DNA from: Planctomycetota bacterium
Lineage (GTDB): Bacteria > Planctomycetota > UBA1135 > UBA2386
NCBI GenBank assembly: GCA_044230075.1
Contig: JBGARS010000005.1
Span: forward strand, 52,799-116,798
DNA length: 64,000 bases
Reading direction: 5' to 3'
Part shown: in pieces, positions 5,871 to 33,387 of the stretch
Position numbering within the stretch: the first letter of the stretch is position 1
Layout of the letters: each line of letters starts with the position of its first letter
Translations under genes and position numbers: made by a program
Notes under the pieces: generated by a model
The model's database searches: none
What the model was told of the DNA's origin: nothing
What the model saw: the letters and a program-made list of their open reading frames with translations, nothing else

Positions 5871-8405
5871 GTGCGATCGAAACCCACCCCTGCGTTGCTG
5901 CCGCTGCTCTGCTTCGTGTTGGTCGCCGGCTTCGCGCCGGCGCAGTGCGACCTGGAGTGGGCGCCGGGTGACGGTTTGCCCGGCACCAACGGTACGGTCT
6001 ACGCGACTACATCGTGGGATCCGGATGGCGCCGGGCCTGCCGACCCGCTGGTGGTCGTCGGCGGCCACTTCGATCGCGTCGGCCCGCTGGCGACCCCGAG
6101 CATCGCGGCATGGGATCCGGCGACTGGCACTTGGAGCGCGTTCGGCAGCGGCATCCTCGGCAGCGTTGCGGCGCTGGCCGTGATGCCGAATGGCGACCTC
6201 GTCGCGGGTGGCTACTGGATCACGCCCGGCGGCACCGTGATCGATCGCATGATGCGTTGGGACGGCACGGGCTGGGTGCCATTCGGCTTCGGCACCGTTG
6301 GCAGCGTGATGTCGCTGCTGGTGACGTCGAGCGGTGACCTGCTGGTCGGCGGTGACTTCGACTTGGCCGGCGGCGTGCCGGCCAGCGGGATCGCGAAGTG
6401 GGATGGCTCGTCGTGGTCGCAGTTCGGCGTGGCTCCGGGCATCACCACCAGCACGGGAACGCGGCTCGTGAATGCGCTCATCGAGTTGCCGACCGGCGAC
6501 ATCGTCGTCGCCGGTCGCTTCACGCACGCTGGCGGTGCTGTGGTCAACAGCCTCACGCGCTGGGACGGGACCACATGGCAGACGTTCGGCCCGGGCCTGC
6601 CGCCGGGCGGGCTCGACCAGATCCGCGTGTTGCACCGGCTGCCGAACGGGGACCTGATCGCCGGTGGCCTGTTCTTCAGCATCGGCGGTGTGATCGTCAA
6701 CCACATCGCGCGCTGGGATGGCGCCACCTGGCACCCGCTCGGATCCGGCGTCAGCTGGGCGATGAACGGCTCGGGTGTGTATTCGGTGAGCGCGCGACCC
6801 AACGGCGACCTCGCGGTCGGTGGTTACTTCACGCAGGCCAGCGGCCAGTCGGCCAACGGCATCGCGCAGTGGAACGGCAGCAACTGGGCGCCGATGGCCG
6901 GCGGTGGCTCCACCAACACGCAGCTCGTGTTGCCGAACGGCGACCTGATCGCCGGCGGTGCGTTCAAGGGCACCGGCGAGGGAGTGTCCCGCTGGGACGG
7001 CACCGCCTGGAATGCCCTGGCGACGGGCTTCAACGATCGGATCACGAGCCTCGCCGTGCTGCCGAACGGCAACGTCGTGGCTGGCGGCTACTTCACCTAT
7101 GCCGGTTCCGGGCCGGTCGGGCGGATCGCCGTCACGGATGGCACCTCCTGGTCATCGCTGGGTTCGGGCATGACATCGACGACGCTGTCCTCTCCCTACG
7201 TGCGGTTGCTTGCGGTGGCACCGAACGGGGACCTGTTCGCGGCGGGCTACTTCACCCACGCGGGGGGTGTGGCTGCTGCGGGCATCGCGCGCTGGGACGG
7301 AACGGCGTGGTGGCCGCTGGGCGCCTTCAACAACTCCTCGCTGAATGCGATGCTGGTGACGTCCAACGGCGACCTGGTGGTGGCGGGCAACTTCAGCACC
7401 ATCGGCGGCGTCACTGCGAAGGGCGTCGCTCGCTGGGATGGTGTTGCCTGGCACGCAATGGGTGCTGGCATGACCTCGACGGTGCGCGCGTTGGCCGTGC
7501 TGCCGAACGGCGATCCGGTTGCCGCCGGCGACTTCCTGATGGCCGATGGCGTGGTGGCCAATCGGGTCGCGAGCTGGGACGGTACGACGTGGGCGCCACT
7601 CGGCGCCGGTCTGCCGGGCAACGCGTCGAGTCTGGTGGTGATGGCGAACGGCGACCTCGTCGCCACCGGTACGTTCGGCATGAACCAGCGATGGAACGGC
7701 AGCAGCTGGAGTTCGCTCGGCTCCGGGCTGGCTGGCGCGCCCAATGCCCTGTTGTCGTTGCCCAACGGCGACCTCTTGGCTGGCGGGTTGTCGTCGCTGG
7801 TGACCGTCTCGGGACTGGTGACGATGGCGCGTTGGTCGGCCGGATCGTGGACGCCGTTGCCGACCTGGCCGGCCGGGAGCGTGCTGGCGATGGTGCGACA
7901 GGTCGACGGCAGCATTGCGGTGGGTGGCACCTTCGCTGCGGTTGGCAGCCAGACGTCGGCGTACCTGGCTCGCCTCACCAGCCCATGCCCTGCGGCGGTG
8001 ACCGGCTTCGCCGCCGGTTGTCCCAGCTCCGGGGGCAGCAATACTCTCACTGCCGTGACCCTGCCGTGGGTCGACAGCACGTTCCGCGCCACCGGCACCG
8101 GTCTGCCGACGTCGGCGATCGTGCTCGCGCTGACCAGCGTGAACGCCGTCGCGCCGCCGCTGGCGCTGTCGTCGGTGTTCGCCGAGGCGCCGGTCGGTTG
8201 CGACCTGCACGTCGCACCCGATATCGTCGAGACGCTGTTCACTGCGAACGGCACCGCGACCTCGCAGCTGTTCCTGCCGAACACACCGCCGCTGGTCGGC
8301 GTGACCTTCTTCCACCAGATGGTGCCGATCGAGGTCGATCCGCTGCTGAACTTCGTCCAGATCACGGCGACCAACGTGCTGCAGCTGACCGCGGGACAGT
8401 TCTGA
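5871..8405 (+). CDS. Secreted protein of ~14 tandem 47-aa Kelch-like beta-propeller blades plus shared C-terminal module
   Basis: The ORF is open from 5814. An in-frame GTG at 5871 preceded by GAGAAGGA gives a clean signal peptide (RSKPTPALLPLLCFVLVAGFAPAQ). The repeat unit is W(D/N)GxxWxxLGxGxxxxVxALxxLPNGDLVAGGxFTxAGG. C-terminal module at 7986-8402. Start uncertain. Confidence 0.8.
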   Translation: MRSKPTPALLPLLCFVLVAGFAPAQCDLEWAPGDGLPGTNGTVYATTSWDPDGAGPADPLVVVGGHFDRVGPLATPSIAAWDPATGTWSAFGSGILGSVAALAVMPNGDLVAGGYWITPGGTVIDRMMRWDGTGWVPFGFGTVGSVMSLLVTSSGDLLVGGDFDLAGGVPASGIAKWDGSSWSQFGVAPGITTSTGTRLVNALIELPTGDIVVAGRFTHAGGAVVNSLTRWDGTTWQTFGPGLPPGGLDQIRVLHRLPNGDLIAGGLFFSIGGVIVNHIARWDGATWHPLGSGVSWAMNGSGVYSVSARPNGDLAVGGYFTQASGQSANGIAQWNGSNWAPMAGGGSTNTQLVLPNGDLIAGGAFKGTGEGVSRWDGTAWNALATGFNDRITSLAVLPNGNVVAGGYFTYAGSGPVGRIAVTDGTSWSSLGSGMTSTTLSSPYVRLLAVAPNGDLFAAGYFTHAGGVAAAGIARWDGTAWWPLGAFNNSSLNAMLVTSNGDLVVAGNFSTIGGVTAKGVARWDGVAWHAMGAGMTSTVRALAVLPNGDPVAAGDFLMADGVVANRVASWDGTTWAPLGAGLPGNASSLVVMANGDLVATGTFGMNQRWNGSSWSSLGSGLAGAPNALLSLPNGDLLAGGLSSLVTVSGLVTMARWSAGSWTPLPTWPAGSVLAMVRQVDGSIAVGGTFAAVGSQTSAYLARLTSPCPAAVTGFAAGCPSSGGSNTLTAVTLPWVDSTFRATGTGLPTSAIVLALTSVNAVAPPLALSSVFAEAPVGCDLHVAPDIVETLFTANGTATSQLFLPNTPPLVGVTFFHQMVPIEVDPLLNFVQITATNVLQLTAGQF

Positions 8406-25990: not shown

Positions 25991-26082
25991 GCGCAGTCTC
26001 GTTCAGAACCGACCCAGTGCTCCGCAGAAGCACTGGGAGCGTCCTGGGCGAGCCTGCGCCGCAGGCGCAGTCTCGTTCAGAA
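25991..26082. repeat. 18-bp perfect direct repeat GCGCAGTCTCGTTCAGAA (25991-26008 and 26065-26082)
   Basis: Read directly from the sequence. The second copy contains the last Phe codon and the stop of the OMP gene on the minus strand. Confidence 0.9.
26013..26037. terminator. Bidirectional terminator-like hairpin between convergent dacB and the OMP gene
   Basis: CCCAGTGCT (26013-26021) pairs perfectly with AGCACTGGG (26029-26037) across a 7-nt loop. A second hairpin is CTGCGCC-GCA-GGCGCAG at 26054-26070. Neither has a U-tract. Confidence 0.5.
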
Positions 26083-26892
26083 GGTCAGCACAAGCCCGAA
26101 CTGGAAGCCGTCGAGTTTCAGGTCGGCGTCGTAGCCGAAACCGTCCGCGCTGCCCTTCGCCGGGAACTCGCTGTAGCGGTAGCCGCCGAAGAAGGTCACG
26201 TCGCGCATCGGGATCCGGTAGCTGAGCCGCGCCTCGAAGTCCTGCTGCGTGCCGCCGTAGTCGCCGCCGAGTGCCAGGTCCGGCGAGATCGCGTAGTCGA
26301 GGTCGAGAGCGACATCGTGCCAGCTCACCTCAGCGCGCACGGCCGGGCAGACGACGTCGCCGTCGACGCTGGCGTTCTGCGTGCGCAGGGTGTCGTCGGT
26401 GCGGACGCGCAGCTTCATCGACCGGTGGGCCAGCACACCGCCGGCGGCGAAACGGAACTTCAGCGGCTGCTCGCGGTACTCGGTCTCGAGGTCGAACAGC
26501 GGTTCGAGGTAGCCCAGGCGCAGGTCGTCCATCTTCGCCTGCAGGGTGACGACGTCGGTGGCGAACAGGCGGCCGAAGTCCGCGGTCAGCGCACCCGGGT
26601 GCGCGCTGCCCATGTCCATCATGTAGTAGTCGAGACGGAAGCCGCCGAACCCGTCGCCGATGTCGACGCGCACGCCGATGTCTTCGTGGTGGTGGTCCTG
26701 GCCGAGCGTACGCGCCGTCTGCGGCGCGTTGTTCTGCAGCGGGCCATTCGCCGCCGGCTGCGACTGCATGCCGAGGCTGCCGCGCAGCTGGTAGACGGCG
26801 AGGTACGGCGACACGAGGACTTGCGGCTCCGCCATCGTCAGTGAGGTGCAGGAGCCCAGGCACAGGAGGCCGATGGTGGCAGCGGTGCGCAT
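26077..26892 (-). CDS. Outer-membrane beta-barrel protein (271 aa)
   Basis: Met at 26892 gives the signal peptide MRTAATIGLLCLGSCTSLTMA. The body shows an alternating beta-strand pattern, and the C-terminus (…FGLVLTF) ends in Phe as in typical OMPs. Confidence 0.7.
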   Translation of the reverse strand: MRTAATIGLLCLGSCTSLTMAEPQVLVSPYLAVYQLRGSLGMQSQPAANGPLQNNAPQTARTLGQDHHHEDIGVRVDIGDGFGGFRLDYYMMDMGSAHPGALTADFGRLFATDVVTLQAKMDDLRLGYLEPLFDLETEYREQPLKFRFAAGGVLAHRSMKLRVRTDDTLRTQNASVDGDVVCPAVRAEVSWHDVALDLDYAISPDLALGGDYGGTQQDFEARLSYRIPMRDVTFFGGYRYSEFPAKGSADGFGYDADLKLDGFQFGLVLTF

Positions 26893-26914
26893 GCGCGGAA
26901 GGCTAGCCGGGAGC

Positions 26915-27655
26915 ATGGCGCGCGGCCTGCTGTTTCGTAGGCTCTCGCGGATGACCGGCGAGTTCCTCGAGCGCGACTTCAAGGCCTACGAAAAGCACCG
27001 TCAGGACGACCCTGAGTACAACGCGCTGCGGCTGAGTGTTCGCCGCAAGCTGAAGTCGATGGTCGACGCGGTGGTCAAGGAGGCCAAGCCGCTCGGTACC
27101 GAGCTGTCGGCGCAGGCGGGGCTGCACCATCCCTACACCTTCAACAGCTACCGCGTGCGGGAGCAGCGCGCGTATGCGTGCCGTGGCGCGAAGGAACGGA
27201 AGCAGCTGGCGGCGTTCTTCGGCGACGCGCTCGGCAAGGATGCCGAGACGCACTACATCCAGACCGTGCTGGAGGTCTGCATGGACGACCAGCTGGTCGA
27301 GGCCGCGCTGCGCATCCACCCGCAGGCGTGGTGGGACGGCGAGAACCTGAAGAAGAAGCTGCTCGCGGACCCGGCGCAGATGGACCAGTTCTGCGTGCTG
27401 CTGAAGGCGCTACCGGGTGGCTTCAACGTCAAACTGCACGACTGGAAGAAGGACCACTGGTGCAGTGCGGTGAAGGCCAGCGAGCTGAAGGAGATGTTCC
27501 AGCACTACACGCCCGGCGAGCACTGGCTGCACGTGCAGCGGCAGCTGCCGAAGGAGGATGCGCTGGAGATGGGGGTGGCGGCGGAGGTGTGGGTGCGCAC
27601 GTCGCTGCTGGCGCTGTTGCCGGTGTACCGGTTCATCCTGTGGGATCCGAGCTGA
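26915..27655 (+). CDS. Hypothetical cytoplasmic protein (about 235-246 aa; start 26915 or 26951)
   Basis: High GC3 throughout. I cannot confidently recognise a family (remotely DUF2461-like in layout). Its 3' end is duplicated downstream at 28331-28414. Confidence 0.65.
   Translation: MARGLLFRRLSRMTGEFLERDFKAYEKHRQDDPEYNALRLSVRRKLKSMVDAVVKEAKPLGTELSAQAGLHHPYTFNSYRVREQRAYACRGAKERKQLAAFFGDALGKDAETHYIQTVLEVCMDDQLVEAALRIHPQAWWDGENLKKKLLADPAQMDQFCVLLKALPGGFNVKLHDWKKDHWCSAVKASELKEMFQHYTPGEHWLHVQRQLPKEDALEMGVAAEVWVRTSLLALLPVYRFILWDPS
27575..27655 (+). repeat. Copy A of the duplicated gene 3' end (…AAEVWVRTSLLALLPVYRFILWDPS*)
   Basis: About 80% nt identity by eye to 28331-28414. Most substitutions are synonymous or conservative. 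Confidence 0.8.
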
Positions 27656-27668
27656 GCGCCGCCGGAGA

Positions 27669-27962
27669 TCAGGGGCGACGACCGAGCCGATGGCTCGGAT
27701 CGCGGCTGCCGTGCAGCACGGCGAGCACGAGCACCTGCTCCTGATCCGCGCGATAGAAGGTGCAGTAGGGGAAGCGCGGTAGCAGCGCGCGCCGCCAGGG
27801 TGCGTGGGCGACGCGGAACCGCAGCGGGTGTTCGAGGATCTGCTCCAGCGCCACGTCGACCGCAGCCACGAACGTCTCTCCAAGTCCCGCCTGCCGAGCC
27901 TCGTACCAGTCGGCGGCCTCCGCGATGTCCGCGGCGGCCGCGTCGGTGACGACGAGCCTCAC
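27669..27962 (-). CDS. parE: ParE/RelE-superfamily toxin (97 aa)
   Basis: The GTG at 27962 overlaps the antitoxin stop (GTGA). …AAADIAEAADWYEARQAGLGETFVAAVDVALEQILEHPLRFRV…RRALLPRFPYCTFYRADQEQVLVLAVLHGSRDP matches the plasmid-stabilisation ParE pattern. Confidence 0.85.
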   Translation of the reverse strand: MRLVVTDAAAADIAEAADWYEARQAGLGETFVAAVDVALEQILEHPLRFRVAHAPWRRALLPRFPYCTFYRADQEQVLVLAVLHGSRDPSHRLGRRP

Positions 27963-28198
27963 GGGTGCGGACGCAGTCGGCCGCGGATCTCCTCCCGCAC
28001 TTCCTGCCACGAACGCGTTCGCATGTCGCCGGCGTCGTAGGCCGCCTGACGGCGGTCTAGTTCGGCGCGCTGCGCGGCCGTGACCGGCAGGGACTGCGGA
28101 TCCTGCTGGAAGCTCTCCCAGACCTGGTCGAGCAGCTGCAGGCGTTCCGCGTCGGTCAGCGTAGAGAGGTCGAGCTTCGGCAAGGCCATGTCGTGCAT
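27959..28198 (-). CDS. Antitoxin, 'addiction module component' type (79 aa)
   Basis: GGAGGA lies 5 nt upstream of ATG 28198. MHDMALPKLDLSTLTDAERLQLLDQVWESF…AELDRRQAAYDAG…SWQEVREEI is typical of the short antitoxins paired with ParE-like toxins. Confidence 0.8.
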   Translation of the reverse strand: MHDMALPKLDLSTLTDAERLQLLDQVWESFQQDPQSLPVTAAQRAELDRRQAAYDAGDMRTRSWQEVREEIRGRLRPHP

Positions 28199-28289
28199 TC
28201 TGTCCTCCTGCAGGAAGTGCGCAACCGGGGGGAGAGGCGCGAAGAGAAAGAGCCGCGCCGGACGATCGGGTGCATGGTGTGCGGGTCCG

Positions 28290-28414
28290 GCGCCGCAGAC
28301 ACCGGAGGAGCACGCGATCGGGTGGAGGCAGTGGCGGAGGTGTGGGTCAGGACCTCGCTGCTCGCGCTGCTGCCGATCTACAAGTTCACGCTGTGGGAGC
28401 CCGACGGCGCGTAA
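28290..28414 (+). pseudogene. Decayed second copy of the 3' end of gene 26915..27655
   Basis: …AVAEVWVRTSLLALLPIYKFTLWEPDGA* at 28331-28414. Upstream similarity (PEEHAIG versus PKEDALEMG) lies in a different frame because of a 1-nt length difference. There is no start or N-terminal body. Confidence 0.65.
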
Positions 28415-28431
28415 GCTGCGCAGGCGAGGCA

Positions 28432-31083
28432 TCAACGCCGCAACGTCCTGGCTGCGCGCAGCCCAAGGCTGCCGCTGCGGAACGCGGAGGGGATGCCGTT
28501 GCGGACGGCGGACTGCGCGTTGTGGGGTGCGAAAACGAAGTTGCCACCTCGGGGGCAGCGGTTGACGGGACCTCCAGAGGGCTCTGGTCGTCGGCCGTCG
28601 CCGACGCGCTCCGCCCCATAGCTCGAGAATTCGTCGAAGCACCACTCCCAGACGTTGCCGCCTGTGTCGAACAGTGCGAAGCCATTGTAGCTCTTCGAGC
28701 CGACAGGTCGCAGAGACCGACTGCCGACGTTCTCCTTGGCCTCGACGCCTTCCTCGTCGCTACCCGTCCACCACTTCGTCGTCGTACCCGCGCGGATGCC
28801 ATACTCCCACTGCAACTCGCTCGGTAGCACGAGCCCATGCGCGTGCAGCACCGGGTCGATGTCGACCCAACTCACCTGCTCGACCGGCAGCGCGAGGTTG
28901 TTCTCTGTCTTGCTGTGGCTCGGGTTCGTGGCCGTCCATCGGAGCCATTGGCCCTGCGTCACCTCGTACTTGCCGAGGAAGAACGGGTCGAGCCGCACGG
29001 TGAGTCGCTTCTTCGCACCCTCGTCGTCCGTGGGCGTGTCCGGGGGCAACGTGCCACCGGGCAACAACACGAACACGATCCCCGTCTCGCCCGTGATCGT
29101 GAGTCGGCCGTCCACGCCGTGTAACGGGATCGGCAGCGTCGCCGGATCCTGCACGCCATCCCAGGCGCTGCGCAGGTCGTAGAACTCCCACAGCTTCGAC
29201 TGCGCGTTCATGCCGATCGGCACGAGGCCCCAGACGTCCTCGTCGCGCAGCGGGATGTCCTGGCCGGCGTAGAGCGTGCTCGCGACGACGCCATCCGCCT
29301 TCGCGATCGCCGCGCGCGCTTCGGCCCAGGTGTGCTTCGCGTTCGGATGCGCGAGGGTCAGGGGGCCAATGTGCCGGGCCCACTGCTGGCGCTTCTCCAC
29401 CTCGGGCAGCAGCCCCTCGAGTTGCGGCAGCTTGCGCAGCAGTTCGCCCAGCGACTTCGCCAGGAACTGCGCCGCGGTCGCCGCGGCAGGATCCGCAGGC
29501 AACAGTTGCCGCGCAGCCGTCATGGTGAGGTCGACGCGTTGTGCGAGCAGGGACCGCGCGTCGCGCAACCACGCGTCGATCGCTTCGACCTGCCCGGGCC
29601 AGCCCGGCGACAGGGTCGGTTCTGCAGCGATCAGCCGCTCGTACGTGACGACCTGGGCAAGTTGGTCGAAGTCCTTCACCTTGCCGGTGAGTTCCGTCCT
29701 GGCGGTTGTCTCAGCGATGGCCCGTTGGTCGGCTTCGCGCGCGTAGGCCGTCGTGCCAGCGATGCCGAGGACCAGGATCAACGCCGCGGCGGCGAGGCTC
29801 GCGGCGAGCGCCTTGTTGCGGCGCATCCACAACTTCATCTCGACGAGCGCGCCGGTGCGGTAGGCCCTGACGACCCGCTGGGCGAGGAACGCGCGCACAT
29901 CGGCGGCCAGCGCCAGCACGTTCGGGTAGCGCGCGTTGCGGTCGCGGGCCATCGCACGTTCGACGATGGCCACCAGTTCGGCAGGCACGCCCTTGTGCAC
30001 GTCCTCGATGCGCTTGCACGGCCCGTCGACGACATCGTTGAGGATGCGATACGCGGGCTGTCGCACGCCGGCCGTCGTGTACGGCGCGCGCCCGGTGAGC
30101 AACTCGTAGAGTATCGCGCCGATCGCGTAGACGTCAGTTCGCTGGTCCAGCTCTTCACTGCGCGCCTGCTCGGGCGACATGTAGCTCGGCGTGCCGAGCT
30201 GCTGGCCGTCCATCGACACCACCGACGACGCGGTGTCCGTCTCGCCGTCGCGCTTGCGCGCCGACTCGATCTTCGACATGCCCGTACTCGCGTCCTGCTG
30301 GATGCGCAGGTCGTGACGGTCCGCTTGCCCGATCACCTTCGCCAGCCCCCAGTCCATCACGTAGACCTCGCCGAACTTGCCGACCATGACGTTCCTCGGC
30401 TTCAGGTCGCGGTGCAGCACACCCTTGTCGTGCGCGTAGGCCATCGTGTCGCAGACCTTCAGCACCACCTCGAGCGCGCGCGTCAGGGGCCAGTCGTGCT
30501 CGCCGACGAACGCATCCGCGAACACCTCGCTCGCGGTGCGCCCCTTCACCAGTCGCATCGTGAAGTACACCTTGCCCGCCGCATCGAGCCCCAGTTCGTG
30601 CACCGGCACCACACCCGGGTGGTCGAGCTGGCTCGTCACCTGCGCTTCTTCGAGGAAGCGCCCGAGCAGCTGACGCACGAGCTGCCGCTCCTCCTCGTCG
30701 CGTGGCGCGGCGCGTTCGATCAGCACCTTCATCGCCAGTCGCCGGTTCAGGAACCGGTCGTGGATCTTCAGCACGACACCCATGCCACCCTGCCCGACCT
30801 CACCCTCGAGCACGAACCGCTGCGCATCGAGCTTCGGCGCCGTCGCCAGCTTCGCCAGCAGCTCGCTGGTCGCCGTCGACTGCACCTTGTCGTTGGGCGT
30901 GGGCGTTGGCGTTGGCGAGGGGGTGTCGATGGCTTCCTCCGGATCGGCGAAGTCGGGAGTCTGCCGGGTCCACGGCCCGGTTGCCATGCACGCGAGTGCC
31001 TGGCGGACGGTTGGCGACATCGGCATCCGGGCTGCGGCGTCGGGCGGGGTCCTCGTCCCATGGGCCGCGAGCCGATTCCGCAC
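28432..31083 (-). CDS. Membrane Ser/Thr protein kinase with extracytoplasmic FGE-sulfatase (SUMF1-like) domain (883 aa)
   Basis: Hanks kinase motifs (GQGGMGVV, AMK, HRDLKPRNVMV, DWGLAK, SPEQ). One TM segment (ALAASLAAAALILVLGIAGTTAYA). C-terminal FGE-like domain (FLGKYEVTQGQW…GNVWEWC…RGGNF…). Confidence 0.88.
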   Translation of the reverse strand: MRNRLAAHGTRTPPDAAARMPMSPTVRQALACMATGPWTRQTPDFADPEEAIDTPSPTPTPTPNDKVQSTATSELLAKLATAPKLDAQRFVLEGEVGQGGMGVVLKIHDRFLNRRLAMKVLIERAAPRDEEERQLVRQLLGRFLEEAQVTSQLDHPGVVPVHELGLDAAGKVYFTMRLVKGRTASEVFADAFVGEHDWPLTRALEVVLKVCDTMAYAHDKGVLHRDLKPRNVMVGKFGEVYVMDWGLAKVIGQADRHDLRIQQDASTGMSKIESARKRDGETDTASSVVSMDGQQLGTPSYMSPEQARSEELDQRTDVYAIGAILYELLTGRAPYTTAGVRQPAYRILNDVVDGPCKRIEDVHKGVPAELVAIVERAMARDRNARYPNVLALAADVRAFLAQRVVRAYRTGALVEMKLWMRRNKALAASLAAAALILVLGIAGTTAYAREADQRAIAETTARTELTGKVKDFDQLAQVVTYERLIAAEPTLSPGWPGQVEAIDAWLRDARSLLAQRVDLTMTAARQLLPADPAAATAAQFLAKSLGELLRKLPQLEGLLPEVEKRQQWARHIGPLTLAHPNAKHTWAEARAAIAKADGVVASTLYAGQDIPLRDEDVWGLVPIGMNAQSKLWEFYDLRSAWDGVQDPATLPIPLHGVDGRLTITGETGIVFVLLPGGTLPPDTPTDDEGAKKRLTVRLDPFFLGKYEVTQGQWLRWTATNPSHSKTENNLALPVEQVSWVDIDPVLHAHGLVLPSELQWEYGIRAGTTTKWWTGSDEEGVEAKENVGSRSLRPVGSKSYNGFALFDTGGNVWEWCFDEFSSYGAERVGDGRRPEPSGGPVNRCPRGGNFVFAPHNAQSAVRNGIPSAFRSGSLGLRAARTLRR

Positions 31084-31110
31084 CCGGGTGGGTGCGAGGG
31101 TCTGCCGCGG

Positions 31111-32075
31111 TCAGTCCCCGAACACGGCAGCGAATGTCGGTGCGGTGAGCACGGCGCACGCGATGCGGTCGAGCTCTTCTGGCGTGCTGGCGCAGAGGCG
31201 TTGGATCGCGGCTTCGGGGAGTGGGCCGAAGCGCTGTTCGAGTTGGCGCTGCAGCATCTGGGCGATGCCCTCGGCGCGGCCGAGCTGCATCAGTTGTTCG
31301 GCGGTGGTCATGTACTTGGCTTCCATCGCGGGTTCGAGGTCAGCGAAGGCGAGGCGCAGGCGCTCTGTCGGCTCGTTGCTGACGGCGGCGGTGTAGGAGA
31401 CTAACCGATAGGCGATCTCGCGTCCGCCGGGCACGGCGAGCAGTGTCCGGTAGAGCGTCTGCCAGGTGCGCATCAGGTTGGCGGTGTCCGCGCGGCGGCG
31501 CAGTCACTGCAAGTGCAGCAGCGGCAGCAAGGCGCGCACGGCCAATCGGCGCGCGTGCAGGTCCTGGTTCTCCGGCGCGGTCAGGTCGTCGAGGTCGAAC
31601 GCGAACGCCGGCTGGCGCGAGAGCAAGTGCTCGGGCAGGCCGTCCAGGTCGATCAGGGCACGCAGGTCGCGCGGTCCCGACCACGGGCGCTGACCGTGGT
31701 GCAGGACCAGCGGCAGCACCGGCGGCAGGCGGCGTTGCTCGGGGTGTTCGCGGCGGTAGCGCGGCCAGATCGCGACGACGTAGGCCAGCAGCTGGAGCGG
31801 GGTGAACGGGTCTGCCCCGGACTTGTGCTCGAGCAGCAGATACAGCAGGGTCGGGCGGTTGCCAGCCTCTGCCGCGAACAGCAGATCGGCCTGCTGCCCA
31901 CGCAGCGCTTCGTCGATGAAGGATCCTTCGAGCCGGCGCAGCGTGCGCCAGTCGATCGCGGCGACCACATCCACGGGCAGGGCGCTGCGCAGCAGCTCCC
32001 CGCGGGCCCGGGCTTGCCGAACACGCCGCGGAACAGGGCGTCGTGCGGATTCTGGATGGCGTGCAGGTCGTCCAC
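31111..32075 (-). pseudogene. Rpn-family (YhgA-like, PD-(D/E)XK) recombination-promoting nuclease, disrupted by one frameshift and one in-frame TGA
   Basis: GTG 32075 (GGAG upstream) opens …NPHDALFRGVFGKPGPAG. A frame change in the G/C run near 31990 is then needed to continue ELLRSALPVDVVAAIDW…ADLLF…LLLEHKS (the D…ExK core). An in-frame TGA at 31504-31506 follows. The same frame then continues as an intact 120-aa ORF (31111-31473) encoding the C-terminal helical domain. Confidence 0.7.
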
Positions 32076-32148
32076 GGATGTCTCCGTGGAGGAAGTGCGC
32101 GATGGGGGGGGCAGGCGGTGCGTGTCTACTGCCTCGACCGTACCGAAC

Positions 32149-33387
32149 TCACTGGCTCGGATAGGTCGCCTTGACCCACTCGATCCACTTCTCGTCGAAC
32201 TGCAGCACCGAGATGCCGTACGCATCCTGGATCGCATCGCGCATCGCCCCGACCAGGTCCGTTTGGTCCGGCGCCCACGTCTTCGGGTCGACGCGGCCCT
32301 TCACCGCGAACAGGAACTTGCGCCACTTCTCGGGGCCCTGCGACATCATCCAGTCGACGCGCGACCAGACCGCGACGTGGTCGTCGAACTTGATGTCGCC
32401 GAAGTCGCGCCACTTGTAGCTCTCGGCGAAGCTCGCGAACTTGCCGGTCCCCGACACCATCGCGCGGCAGTACTGCGCCCACTTCGCCGTCGTCTTCATG
32501 TCGGCGATCGAGCCTTCGTTCTGGTCGAAGTCGTTGTACTTGATGTCGACGCGGCGGGCGACCCAGTGGCCGAAGCCTTCGCGGATCCAGACCGGCAGGT
32601 CGTAGCCGTAGAAGCGGAAGCCATCGAGCAGGTTCTGGCTGACGTTGAAGGCGAGCGAGCAGTGCAGGGCCGTGTCGTGCTTGCGCGGGAACTCGCCGGA
32701 CTCGGTCGCCAGCGCGATCAGCAGCGTGCCGGTTTCCTTGAAGTGCCAGCGCTGCGGGTACTTCGTGTCGCGGCCGATGAAGCCCTTCATGTACTGCTGG
32801 TACGGTCCCAGCTTCTCGAACACCAGCACGAGGAACTTGTCCTTCATGCCCATGTAGGGCCCGTAGCCCATGTAGCGCGCGCCCGGCGTCAGCACGACGT
32901 TGTTGGGATCCGGTGGGAAGTCCGCGTCCTTGACGCCGAACAGTTCCTGCGTCTCCGCGTACAGCTTCTCCATGCGGTACGCGGTCAGGTGCGCGCGCAG
33001 CCACGGGTCGAGCGTCTTCGGCTTCGGGTTGATGCCGGGCAGCTTCTCGGCCAGCTCGGTCAGTTCACCTCTGAGCTTGGTGCGCGTCTCGAGGTCGACC
33101 GGCACCGGCCACGCCGGCAGGTTGGTGCCGATGCGGAAGTGCGCGGTCTCGATCCAGAGGATCTGCACGTAGTCGATCGCCGCGTCGATGTCGGAGCTGC
33201 TGACCGGGTTGTCGGCCTTGTTGCCGAACGGGAACGGCCCGAACGACACGTAGCCAGCCTTCTTCATCAGCTCCGGGTCGTTCTTGGTGTACGGATCGAT
33301 GCGCCACTTCGGCAGCTTGTCCTTGTCGCCCTGCGCGAGCAGCGGCGTGCCGAGCAAGCAGGCGAGCAGCAGGGAGATGGTGCGCAT
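32149..33387 (-). CDS. Secreted protein with degenerate gluzincin (peptidase-MA-like) core (412 aa)
   Basis: Met at 33387 gives the signal peptide MRTISLLLACLLGTPLLAQ. HCSLA occupies the HExxH position and is followed by LPVWIREGFGHW (the PxWxxEG motif of MA-clan or DUF1570-like proteins). GC3 is high. Confidence 0.7.
   Translation of the reverse strand: MRTISLLLACLLGTPLLAQGDKDKLPKWRIDPYTKNDPELMKKAGYVSFGPFPFGNKADNPVSSSDIDAAIDYVQILWIETAHFRIGTNLPAWPVPVDLETRTKLRGELTELAEKLPGINPKPKTLDPWLRAHLTAYRMEKLYAETQELFGVKDADFPPDPNNVVLTPGARYMGYGPYMGMKDKFLVLVFEKLGPYQQYMKGFIGRDTKYPQRWHFKETGTLLIALATESGEFPRKHDTALHCSLAFNVSQNLLDGFRFYGYDLPVWIREGFGHWVARRVDIKYNDFDQNEGSIADMKTTAKWAQYCRAMVSGTGKFASFAESYKWRDFGDIKFDDHVAVWSRVDWMMSQGPEKWRKFLFAVKGRVDPKTWAPDQTDLVGAMRDAIQDAYGISVLQFDEKWIEWVKATYPSQ

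Follow-up and report, generated by a model that had tools for sequence, protein, structure and literature searches.

Homology-facilitated illegitimate recombination (HFIR) was reportedly described by de Vries and Wackernagel in 2002 and by Prudhomme et al. in the same year. Displaced C termini and orphan 3' ends are likewise said to have been described, by Jackson et al. in 2009, for Rhs, CDI, and T6SS effector-immunity loci. In HFIR, homology anchors one end of the incoming DNA, and the opposite end is joined at an unrelated site; genes at the junction are truncated, and no dedicated recombinase takes part. In the Rhs/CDI/T6SS loci, a working 3' end is followed by a displaced homologous fragment, with a small toxin-related module in between, and hot spots carry arrays of such scars; there the toxin is the variable 3' end itself, and its immunity protein comes from the small gene, on the same strand. 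HFIR has been documented experimentally, including in Escherichia coli conjugation (PMC3240628), and it has also been put forward as an explanation of 3' ends displaced at Rhs and T6SS loci (PMC5361080).

Here we describe a locus with a similar appearance in a 64-kb stretch of planctomycete DNA (the window), in which a ParE-type toxin-antitoxin (TA) cassette lies between two copies of the 3' end of a conserved gene (gene X). Loci of relatives are given as L numbers. The features are as follows.

26951 to 27655, plus strand: gene X, intact, encoding a conserved hypothetical protein (234 aa) found in Planctomycetota MAGs
26915, plus strand: alternative start of gene X, giving 246 aa
27548 to 27655, plus strand: copy A, the functional X 3' end, ending in ...PKEDALEMGVAAEVWVRTSLLALLPVYRFILWDPS and the stop codon; 89.5% identical to L070 and 91.4% to L077 (105 nt)
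27660 to 31105, no strand: block of TA cassette, copy B, and kinase, replaced by 12 bp in the closest relative, L070 (blastn breakpoints and junction sequences)
27669 to 27962, minus strand: ParE-family toxin gene, 97 aa, GTG start (PF05016, 45.5 bits)
27959 to 28198, minus strand: antitoxin gene, 79 aa, "putative addiction module component" family (PF09720, TIGR02574)
28199 to 28264, minus strand: upstream region of the TA operon, with its presumed promoter and operator
28265 to 28301, no strand: junction interval of the inferred illegitimate join, where L075 homology fades; X homology starts at 28302
28302 to 28414, plus strand: copy B, the dead 3' remnant of another X allele, ending in ...AVAEVWVRTSLLALLPIYKFTLWEPDGA and the stop codon, 17 nt from the kinase stop codon
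28432 to 31020, minus strand: Ser/Thr kinase fused to an FGE-sulfatase domain (P0147, 862 aa, PF00069/PF07714/PF03781), convergent with copy B
31111 to 32075, minus strand: Rpn/YhgA-like (Transposase_31) gene, decayed (PF04754)
From about 32148: gene Y, the next shared gene to the right of the hot spot

Gene X is highly conserved. Its 277 homologues include a top 120 with 71 to 94% identity and lengths of mostly 233 to 234 aa, and dN and dS over the whole gene against L070 were 0.032 and 0.224, respectively. Profile and PDB sequence searches for its function yielded no Pfam, NCBIfam, or PDB relative. A preliminary description, made by eye from the window alone, held that the 3' end of X recurs downstream as a dead remnant and that the two copies evolved in different lineages; formal comparison bears out each of these points. 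Positions 27548 to 27648 and 28302 to 28401 are 76% identical with one 1-nt gap, and the alignment score of 80 far exceeds those of 500 shuffles (20.2 ± 2.8; maximum, 40). The similarity was also recovered by blastn between the copies (E = 1.7e-14), by tblastn of X residues 222 to 245 against positions 28331 to 28402 (79% identity, E = 1e-8), and by a repeat search, which returned a gapless 79-nt pair (78%). The copies form direct repeats with a spacing of 753 bp, and their longest common exact run is 15 nt (GGCGGAGGTGTGGGT). Neither blastn nor tblastn detected a third copy of the X tail within the 64 kb, and a degenerate candidate in the spacer at 28232 to 28301 was not significant. Because the 1-nt gap at 28322/28323 puts positions 28302 to 28322 out of frame relative to 28331 to 28414, copy B is a dead fragment. 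The differences between the copies had also been called mainly synonymous or conservative, which overstates them: pS (0.40) exceeds pN (0.185), yet the Nei-Gojobori counts are 10.5 nonsynonymous and 8.5 synonymous differences, a suggestive contrast (Fisher P = 0.075).

In place of that ratio, we used a diagnostic-site test against the X tail of L078, a truncated tail that is the best match of copy B (84.6 to 86% identity versus 75 to 76% to copy A, an affinity measured over about 100 nt) and that shares with it the DAIG and IYKFTLWEP motifs. Copy A and the L078 tail differ at 25 sites. Copy B has the L078 nucleotide at 16 of them and the copy A nucleotide at 6, a pattern with P = 5e-12 under neutral decay from a copy-A-like sequence. 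These sites indicate that copies A and B come from different X lineages. The PDGA end of copy B, with its stop codon, is also found in the intact X of L004. A full-length X with a copy-B-type tail (...IYKFTLWEPDGA) beside a window-type kinase was present in no genome found; the donor is unsampled. In situ tandem duplication of the X tail with neutral decay of copy B, or else an assembly chimera, is extremely unlikely. Direct repeats at this spacing would suit a duplication, but the agreement with L078 at the diagnostic sites does not; as for a chimera, two further sequencing runs, assembled independently (L073 and L074), span the order X-TA-copy B-kinase at 99.6 to 99.9% identity, and the junction is therefore not an assembly artifact. 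The population of the window strain is represented in runs SRR30350725 and SRR28480387.

Only the TA operon and its upstream region lie between the copies, and the sequence elements reported earlier were all confirmed: the Shine-Dalgarno motif GGAGGA (reverse complement of 28203 to 28208), the palindrome TCCTGCAGGA (28205 to 28214), and the GTGA stop/start overlap (27959 to 27962), in which the antitoxin comes first, as expected for translational coupling, and which has the same layout in L075 to L077. The toxin scores well above the PF05016 cutoff of 23 bits over profile positions 2 to 89 of 89, as a member of the ParE/RelE superfamily, and it resembles ParE2 of PDB entry 8c26 (E = 4e-4). The antitoxin exceeds the cutoffs of both PF09720 (56.5 bits versus 23.3) and TIGR02574 (57.5 bits versus 31.9). 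Upstream of the operon, the block at 28204 to 28231 is conserved in L075, L076, and L077, and no match to the sigma-70 consensus was found in this region. An antitoxin-first bicistronic operon with a 4-nt overlap, small proteins, profile scores above curated thresholds, and variable presence among close strains are traits of ParDE-type type II modules. The ParE/PF09720 pair is a genuine compact ParE-type operon, although its antitoxin is of the "putative addiction module component" family rather than a ParD/RHH protein. The cassette is under purifying selection, with dN/dS values of 0.32 (versus L076) and 0.47 (versus L077) for the toxin and 0.13 and 0.29, respectively, for the antitoxin, values that lend indirect support to a putative gyrase-poisoning toxicity that the antitoxin would neutralize. 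A metagenome scan with X added one 1.3-kb strain variant with ParE beside X (L080) and no new long haplotypes; with the antitoxin alignment as the query, the scan yielded no relative.

TA modules stabilize integrated elements. This role, together with direct repeats that contain a 15-nt identical run, would suit a site-specific integrative element (with an integrase and attL/attR sites) that decayed to its TA module, an origin that we consider very unlikely. The two TA genes are the only genes between the repeats, and no integrase or integrase remnant was detected between or near them. A single repeat is present at the occupied sites (L075, L076, and L077) as well as at the empty ones (L070, L071, and L072). 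Close relatives of the cassette with known context occur at this locus only, never elsewhere; the base composition of the locus is that of the genome; and no terminal direct or inverted repeats or GC anomaly were found around the TA cassette or around the 3.4-kb block. An integron gene cassette was considered and rejected, as no suitable inverted repeat bounds the TA genes and no integrase ORF is present.

Comparisons with relatives revealed how the locus varies. Window positions 26077 to 27659 and 31106 to 33000 align with L070 (89% nt identity) on either side of the 12-bp stretch, so that the TA cassette, copy B, and the kinase form one indel. L077 and L071, with both flanks 96% identical, are separated by a clean 680-bp TA indel. 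The TA-less sites (L070 and L071/L072) carry one X tail each; the preliminary description had predicted this, and it fits the model of that description and the alternative favored below equally. In L075, L076, and L077, the cassette directly follows the X stop codon, with an exact junction that varies by a few nucleotides, and a second X tail is absent. To the right of the cassette, L075 and L076, known from contigs of 0.9 to 1.6 kb and of strain types represented in runs SRR31893881 and SRR33423587, have a truncated HRDC-like ORF instead of copy B, and L077 (X-TA-Rpn, with no X remnant) has a 118-bp TA-Rpn spacer without a window counterpart. Three right junctions (X tail, truncated HRDC-like ORF, and 118 bp plus Rpn) therefore correspond to one left position, the constant-side/variable-side arrangement of HFIR. 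The TA cassette is most likely a resident, strain-variable module of about 570 to 680 bp directly after the X stop codon.

Within the window, 585 nt (27641 to 28225) are identical to L075, whereas the 109 nt of X tail just to the left contain six mismatches, a contrast with P = 4e-15 at uniform divergence; copy A is also polymorphic at 27567 to 27640 between near-identical strains. A like scar was found in L004, where an MNT/HepT-like pair is flanked by kinase fragments. The mismatch contrast shows recombination to be active at the locus, and the interval from X to Y, with at least six configurations among close relatives, is a hot spot of recombination in this clade of planctomycetes. Known core-gene hot spots resemble it in having conserved flanks (here X and Y) and several contents, here at least six among relatives of 75 to 96% nt identity, drawn from two TA types, Rpn, a kinase, and an HRDC-like gene. 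It differs from them in its very small size (0 to 3.4 kb) and in lacking any sign of integrative mobile elements. What emerges is a very small and very active hot spot in uncultured Planctomycetota, anchored by the highly conserved gene X, in and out of which two TA types, a nuclease gene of the YhgA/Rpn kind, and mosaic alleles of the kinase are swapped. An unlikely alternative is that the ParE cassette is itself a recombinase-free selfish unit, with the conserved X tail as its sole homology arm and the other end joining anywhere. Such joins would yield a truncated HRDC gene, an Rpn neighbor, or a duplicated tail that leaves X intact, and the window would then record the "replacement-end" insertion that the preliminary description proposed.

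The right-hand copy of the repeat belongs with the kinase. X and the kinase are convergent neighbors, 12 to 45 nt apart, in many relatives, and copy B is therefore physically linked to the kinase. Positions 28302 to 29369 of the window align unbroken with positions 6598 to 7672 of L003, through the X tail, the spacer, and the kinase 3' end, and similar alignments were obtained with L002, L004, and L007; these alignments indicate that the kinase and copy B are one block. The locus is a patchwork. Copy A, the gene upstream of X, Rpn, and Y place the window with L070, L071, and L077; by its kinase, the window groups with L004, L078, and L079 (78 to 84% aa identity, from 78% for L078 to 84% for L004, the closest, versus 63 to 69% for L002, L003, and L007). 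The window kinase is a mosaic, and both C-terminal allele types of the kinase occur beside either neighbor, an X tail or the HRDC-like gene.

In L078, a kinase paralogue is followed by the truncated X tail, 64 codons (192 nt) long; directly next to this tail lies the C-terminal part of a Y2 transposase of the IS91 family (PF04986, 54.5 bits). This block is a second locus of MAG-22, on a different contig from its normal X-kinase locus (L002). A gene and a neighbor fragment at a second locus beside a Y2 transposase fragment are what IS91/ISCR mobilization would leave, and one-ended rolling-circle transposition of this type could have moved an X-tail-plus-kinase block beside the TA cassette, with later loss of the insertion sequence. 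We judge this improbable. Remnants of IS91, ends resembling oriIS or terIS, and terminal repeats are all absent from the window block and its surroundings; X is cut at a different point in each case, leaving 113 nt in the window and 192 nt in L078; without guidance by homology, an arrival 650 bp away from the resident X would be a coincidence; and the two MAG-22 contigs possibly come from different strains that were binned together.

The main proposal of the preliminary description was that a TA element had integrated within the 3' end of X and brought along a new end for the gene, an event that would place foreign sequence beyond a crossover in the gene-proximal repeat. The comparisons speak against it. 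Copy A looks like the resident end of X rather than an imported one, because its identity to L070 and L077 (about 90%) is as high as that of the rest of X (the block of X and its upstream gene is 87 to 89% identical to the nearest relatives), and L075 to L077 have the cassette without a second tail. Copy B is continuous with the kinase, as at the intact X-kinase junctions of L003, L002, and L007, and it recurs with a kinase paralogue in L078. Neither an integrase nor terminal repeats nor a compositional anomaly was found. As for the accompanying statement that no transposase is present, it holds between the copies, but the decayed Rpn nuclease gene is of the Transposase_31 type; it is the nearest recombination-related gene, 2.7 kb off, and is also found at empty sites. 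Gene conversion of copy A by copy B was considered separately and is unsupported, since the window-specific variants at 27617, 27628, and 27640 match copy B inconsistently.

A recombinational form of the same proposal does better, and we regard it as unlikely rather than remote. A donor segment of the 3' part of X plus the TA cassette would have entered an X-kinase recipient by a homologous crossover within X and an illegitimate join 113 nt before the recipient X stop codon, so that copy A would be imported and copy B would be the displaced native end, much as C termini are displaced at Rhs and T6SS loci. The geometry fits, since the direct repeats flank the TA cassette only; one left position with several right junctions is what X-anchored insertion would give; the complete identity of the TA cassette between the window and L075, with differing flanks, is expected after recent transfer; and the kinase, positioned as in L002, L003, and L007, could be native. 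However, copy A, the rest of X, Rpn, and Y are all L070/L077-like; it is copy B and the kinase that stand apart. An L075-like donor also predicts a copy A as identical as the TA cassette, contrary to the six mismatches noted above, and copy B is absent from the TA-bearing relatives. A join upstream of the homologous crossover would in addition produce a duplication and need two recipient copies, which is mechanistically rarer than simple replacement.

We therefore lean, with restrained confidence, toward copy B as the hitchhiking end of a kinase-bearing segment that came from another X lineage and was joined illegitimately beside the resident TA cassette. A segment from a related lineage, starting 113 nt inside its X and running into or through its kinase, would have replaced the DNA to the right of the cassette (the truncated HRDC-like gene in L075 and L076). 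One end would have been resolved by homologous recombination inside the kinase gene or beyond, and the other by illegitimate joining at about 28265 to 28302, a process of HFIR that needs no integrase. The imported X fragment would have lacked a start codon and a function, and the frameshift would have been acquired afterwards. X homology begins at 28302 against copy A and against the L078 tail alike, which, with the fading of L075 homology, brackets the join to 28265 to 28301. No convincing microhomology was identified in this interval, in which the score of a 10-nt repeat (CGATCGGGTG) was reached by 105 of 1,000 shuffles and is not significant.

That the kinase segment rather than the TA cassette was imported, and that the kinase served as the homologous anchor, we infer from the comparative data, and the direction is not settled. 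Presence/absence parsimony does not separate import of the kinase segment from an ancestral window arrangement with deletions in the other lineages. Under the latter, X-TA-X'-kinase-Rpn would be original, L077 would have deleted X' and the kinase, and L070 and L071 would have deleted the TA cassette too. The event count is similar to that of import, the position of the kinase between X and Y is that of the outgroups, and Rpn would be a simple extra insertion between the kinase and Y. Nevertheless, deletions would have had to occur independently at least three times with nearly coincident endpoints, the origin of copy B would be left unexplained, nothing in the window corresponds to the 118-bp spacer between TA and Rpn in L077, and the kinase groups with L004, L078, and L079, against the X/Y tree. 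We hold this arrangement to be as improbable as IS91/ISCR transposition.

Import of the kinase segment by HFIR agrees with the three right junctions of the TA cassette and with the truncated X, HRDC, and kinase pieces at this locus; it departs from described HFIR in that its anchor and direction come from comparative data only and its join has no clear microhomology. Relative to the Rhs, CDI, and T6SS loci, the locus shares the working 3' end, the downstream fragment, and the small toxin-related module between them. Here, however, the X tails are near-identical and nonpolymorphic, the ParE operon is independent and on the opposite strand, and the evidence suggests that the remnant came with the kinase and not by displacement. 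Direct repeats flanking a cassette can thus be a misleading footprint, as the repeat here most likely came with the neighboring gene. No new kind of mobile element emerges from this locus, and its biology is ordinary.

Copy B has a bearing on annotation and should be labeled a pseudogene fragment. A 46-codon ORF at 28274 to 28414 keeps the C-terminal helix of X in frame and has been called in other assemblies, and such 46-aa ORF calls deserve suspicion; divergent expression of this ORF from the TA promoter region may occur, as a weaker side possibility. Retention of copy B as a terminator of the kinase was considered and rejected, as there is no terminator-like site and the folding energy is ordinary (z = -0.32). 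In the Rpn gene, the decay consists of a frameshift near codons 26 to 34 and a TGG-to-TGA stop at about 31504 to 31506. Its N-terminal ORF matches PF04754 with 103.9 bits, its C-terminal ORF gives a hint of DUF4351, and the intact proteins of L070 and L077, used as tblastn queries, recover the locus in two frames with an internal stop.

The end of gene X, a conserved gene, recurs beyond a ParE-type toxin-antitoxin (TA) operon. This feature is a recombination scar, of ordinary mechanism; the small hypervariable interval around it is also home to the TA operon, a locus-resident module. The interval reaches from X to the next shared gene (Y, from ~32148), and its features are as follows.

26951-27655, +: gene X (234 aa; 246 aa from an alternative start at 26915)
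27669-27962, -: ParE toxin (97 aa; PF05016, 45.5 bits; PDB ParE2 8c26, E = 4e-4)
27959-28198, -: antitoxin (79 aa; PF09720, 56.5 bits; TIGR02574, 57.5 bits)
28302-28414, +: copy B, a recurrence of the last ~105 nt of X
28432-31020, -: Ser/Thr kinase-FGE-sulfatase gene (the kinase), convergent with copy B and 17 nt beyond it
31111-32075, -: Transposase_31/Rpn-like gene (Rpn), with DUF4351, beyond the kinase

X is strongly conserved across Planctomycetota MAGs (277 homologues, the best 120 of them at 71-94% identity), and its 234-aa product had no relative in Pfam, NCBIfam or PDB searches. If the longest ORFs are used, its long form overlaps head to head (26915-26982) with the divergent gene to its left (26077-26982, -; a 301-aa ORF, putative lipoprotein/outer-membrane protein). 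Shorter starts are favored by homologues, which suggests that X begins at 26951. The G+C content of the window is 70%.

The repeat, noticed by eye in the preliminary description, was significant on formal alignment. The 3' end of X (copy A, 27548-27655) aligned with copy B with a score of 80, versus 20.2 +/- 2.8 in shuffles, at 76% identity (blastn E = 1.7e-14). The single 1-nt gap, also seen earlier, puts the upstream third of copy B out of frame. The view that the differences were mainly synonymous or conservative was borne out weakly: synonymous differences numbered 8.5 and non-synonymous ones 10.5 (pN/pS 0.46; Fisher p = 0.075). A third copy was not found anywhere in the window. The order X-TA-copy B-kinase was reproduced at 99.6 to 99.9% identity in independent assemblies from other sequencing runs, which rules out a chimera; assembly error is effectively excluded by the recurrence of the junctions. 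A predicted 46-codon ORF (28274-28414, +; ATG start), divergent from the TA upstream region, enters copy B in frame and retains 27 C-terminal X residues. It was annotated by gene callers in Logan contigs (L073 565-705; L numbers denote loci or contigs of relatives) and was seen in the same strain only.

Copy A looks like the resident end of X: it shares 89.5 to 91.4% identity with the L070 and L077 X tails, similar to the whole block of X and its left neighbor (87 to 89%). Copy B had no close match among ~120 X genes (best full-length matches, ~80%); its best match overall was a truncated X tail in L078 (86%, same register). Of the 25 sites separating copy A from the L078 tail, 16 have the L078 nucleotide in copy B, 6 the copy A nucleotide and 3 neither. 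Decay of a copy A duplicate would be expected to yield ~2 agreements with L078 (P = 5e-12), and duplication in situ is effectively excluded. A two-codon extension (...PDGA*) is also common to copy B and the intact L004 X. The site pattern and these affinities indicate that the copies descend from different X lineages, as first proposed; however, the imported-looking one is copy B, not copy A, which had been taken for a replacement end supplied by an integrating TA element.

A single alignment stretch matched window 28302-29369 to L003 6598-7672 (X tail, short spacer and kinase 3' end), and the same collinearity was seen with L002, L004 and L007. The window kinase groups with those of L004, L079 and L078 (78 to 84% aa identity, versus 63 to 69% to L002, L003 and L007), in disagreement with the X/Y tree. 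In L078 (3131-3956), the last 64 X codons, in frame and ending ...IYKFTLWEPAE*, are convergent with a kinase paralogue 78% identical to the kinase of the window. Collinearity, kinase clustering and the L078 block thus indicate that copy B travels with the kinase. Directly adjoining the L078 fragment is the C-terminal portion of an IS91-family Y2 transposase, itself split by a frameshift. An unlikely alternative history, IS91-style mobilization of an X-tail-kinase block, is suggested by this one locus only. It lies near an end of JAEUHR010000039.1, a second contig of MAG-22, the MAG in which the normal X-kinase locus L002 is also found.

The TA operon, compact and on the minus strand, lies 13 nt past the X stop codon. 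The GTGA stop/start overlap, the GGAGGA SD and the TCCTGCAGGA palindrome spanning it were all present as previously read. The palindrome (28205-28214), a candidate operator for autoregulation, is unchanged in L075, differs at one position in L077 (TCCTGCAAGA) and persists as CCTGCAGG in L076. Among 5.8 billion sequences searched, ParE matches of >60% identity were limited to the window's own and three others; two of these three had readable context (L076 and L077), both directly after X, and the third (P0123) is encoded on a 549-bp contig. The dN/dS values (0.32 to 0.47 for the toxin and 0.13 to 0.29 for the antitoxin) show purifying selection on the cassette. On the left, the cassette joins 4 to 8 nt past the X stop; on the right, the junction differs in each haplotype, each time truncating another sequence. 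The cassette was accompanied by neither terminal repeats nor an integrase, nor by a compositional anomaly, in line with the earlier remark on the missing integrase, and an integrase-borne element is effectively excluded.

We compared 69 loci from reference genomes, 49 from metagenomes and ten obtained via exact-protein look-ups. Among relatives with 75 to 96% nucleotide identity in the flanks, at least six arrangements of the X-to-Y interval were seen.

Forms of the X-to-Y interval
(a) X-Rpn-Y, 21 nt separating both stop codons: L070/L001, L071, L072
(b) X-TA-Rpn-Y: L077
(c) X-TA-copy B-kinase-Rpn-Y: window, L073, L074
(d) X-TA-truncated HRDC-like ORF, then kinase in L076: L075, L076
(e) X-kinase-Y, directly convergent genes: L002, L003, L007/L083
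(f) X-(HRDC ORF fused to kinase 5' fragment)-MNT/HepT-like pair-internally deleted kinase-Y: L004

Trees from X with its left neighbor and from Y both gave ((window, L070), (L071, L077)), with L002, L004 and L003 outside. L071 and L077, 96% identical in both flanks, are set apart by a clean 680-bp TA indel; L070 has 12 bp in place of the whole TA-copy B-kinase block (27660-31105). Sites lacking the TA exist (e.g., L070 and L071), as expected of an integrated cassette and equally of the alternative. TA-bearing relatives have no second X tail adjoining it, local alignments there being no better than shuffles. Rpn is a clade-specific insertion between Y and the kinase (or X), intact in L070 (321 aa) and in L071, L072 and L077 (317 aa); the window copy is a pseudogene (frameshift near codons 26-34; TGG to TGA at ~31504-31506). 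The Rpn/YhgA-like family promotes RecA-independent recombination in E. coli (PMC5350276). A role for the adjacent pseudogene in recombination at this locus would be pure speculation.

Over 27641-28225 (585 nt, the entire TA) the window does not differ from L075; the 109 nt of X on the left hold 6 differences, and alignment is lost 40 to 75 nt to the right (chance under uniform divergence, 4e-15). L073 differs from the window in copy A only, and three of its variants are common to L075. The kinase C-terminal domain has two allele types (~50% mutual identity), either of which occurs beside either neighbor (X tail or HRDC-like gene). These patterns are evidence for ongoing recombination at the locus.

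Homology-facilitated illegitimate recombination (HFIR) is the most likely source of the scar. Sequence from a relative with neighboring X and kinase genes would have taken the place of the right flank in a TA-bearing, L075- or L076-like haplotype. By chance, the imported DNA would have begun 113 nt inside the donor X, with an illegitimate join at ~28265-28302 and homologous recombination at the opposite end, within the kinase or beyond. Which way the exchange ran and where the homologous crossover fell are inferred, the L075 and L076 contigs being short. HFIR has been documented experimentally (PMC3240628) and has been put forward to explain the displaced 3' ends of T6SS and Rhs loci (PMC5361080). 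It would account for a foreign affinity common to copy B and the kinase and another common to X, TA, Rpn and Y, for the kinase at its usual position, and for the lack of copy B in other TA-bearing strains, and it requires no recombinase. The replacement-end proposal, recast as HFIR anchored in X with the join inside X, is unlikely: besides the resident look of copy A, the TA has 0 mismatches to L075 but copy A has 6, and a duplication-forming topology would be needed. An ancestral window-like arrangement with repeated deletions elsewhere is also unlikely; it is compatible with parsimony, but it leaves the source of copy B unexplained.

The locus is mildly notable as a very small, very busy hot spot, with two TA types, an Rpn nuclease gene and mosaic kinase alleles, and for a direct-repeat geometry at the TA that misleads. 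The kinase gene is a mosaic (window 28435-31083, compared with L002-L004, L007, L076, L078 and L079): the N-terminal kinase domain is nearest L004 (88%), the middle L078 (87.5%) and the C-terminal domain L079 (75%); the kinase-FGE-sulfatase family is hugely expanded (6916 matches). In L004 (6675-8448), the other TA-like pair, a nucleotidyltransferase (PF18765/PF01909) and a HepT-like protein (PF20797, under the curated cutoff), lies between X and the kinase. On one side of it is an HRDC-domain ORF fused to an N-terminal piece of a kinase and on the other a kinase lacking residues ~626-806, a second case here of a cassette between gene fragments. Several haplotypes (L075 1-250, L076 670-800 and L079 2909-3014) have, downstream of the kinase, the conserved start of a small ORF (MRAKVLTLRFSPQLGRFDDAPLIALQQKVV...), which is presumably the N-terminus of the L004 HRDC-domain protein; beside the TA in L075 and L076 it is cut to 56 or 29 codons.
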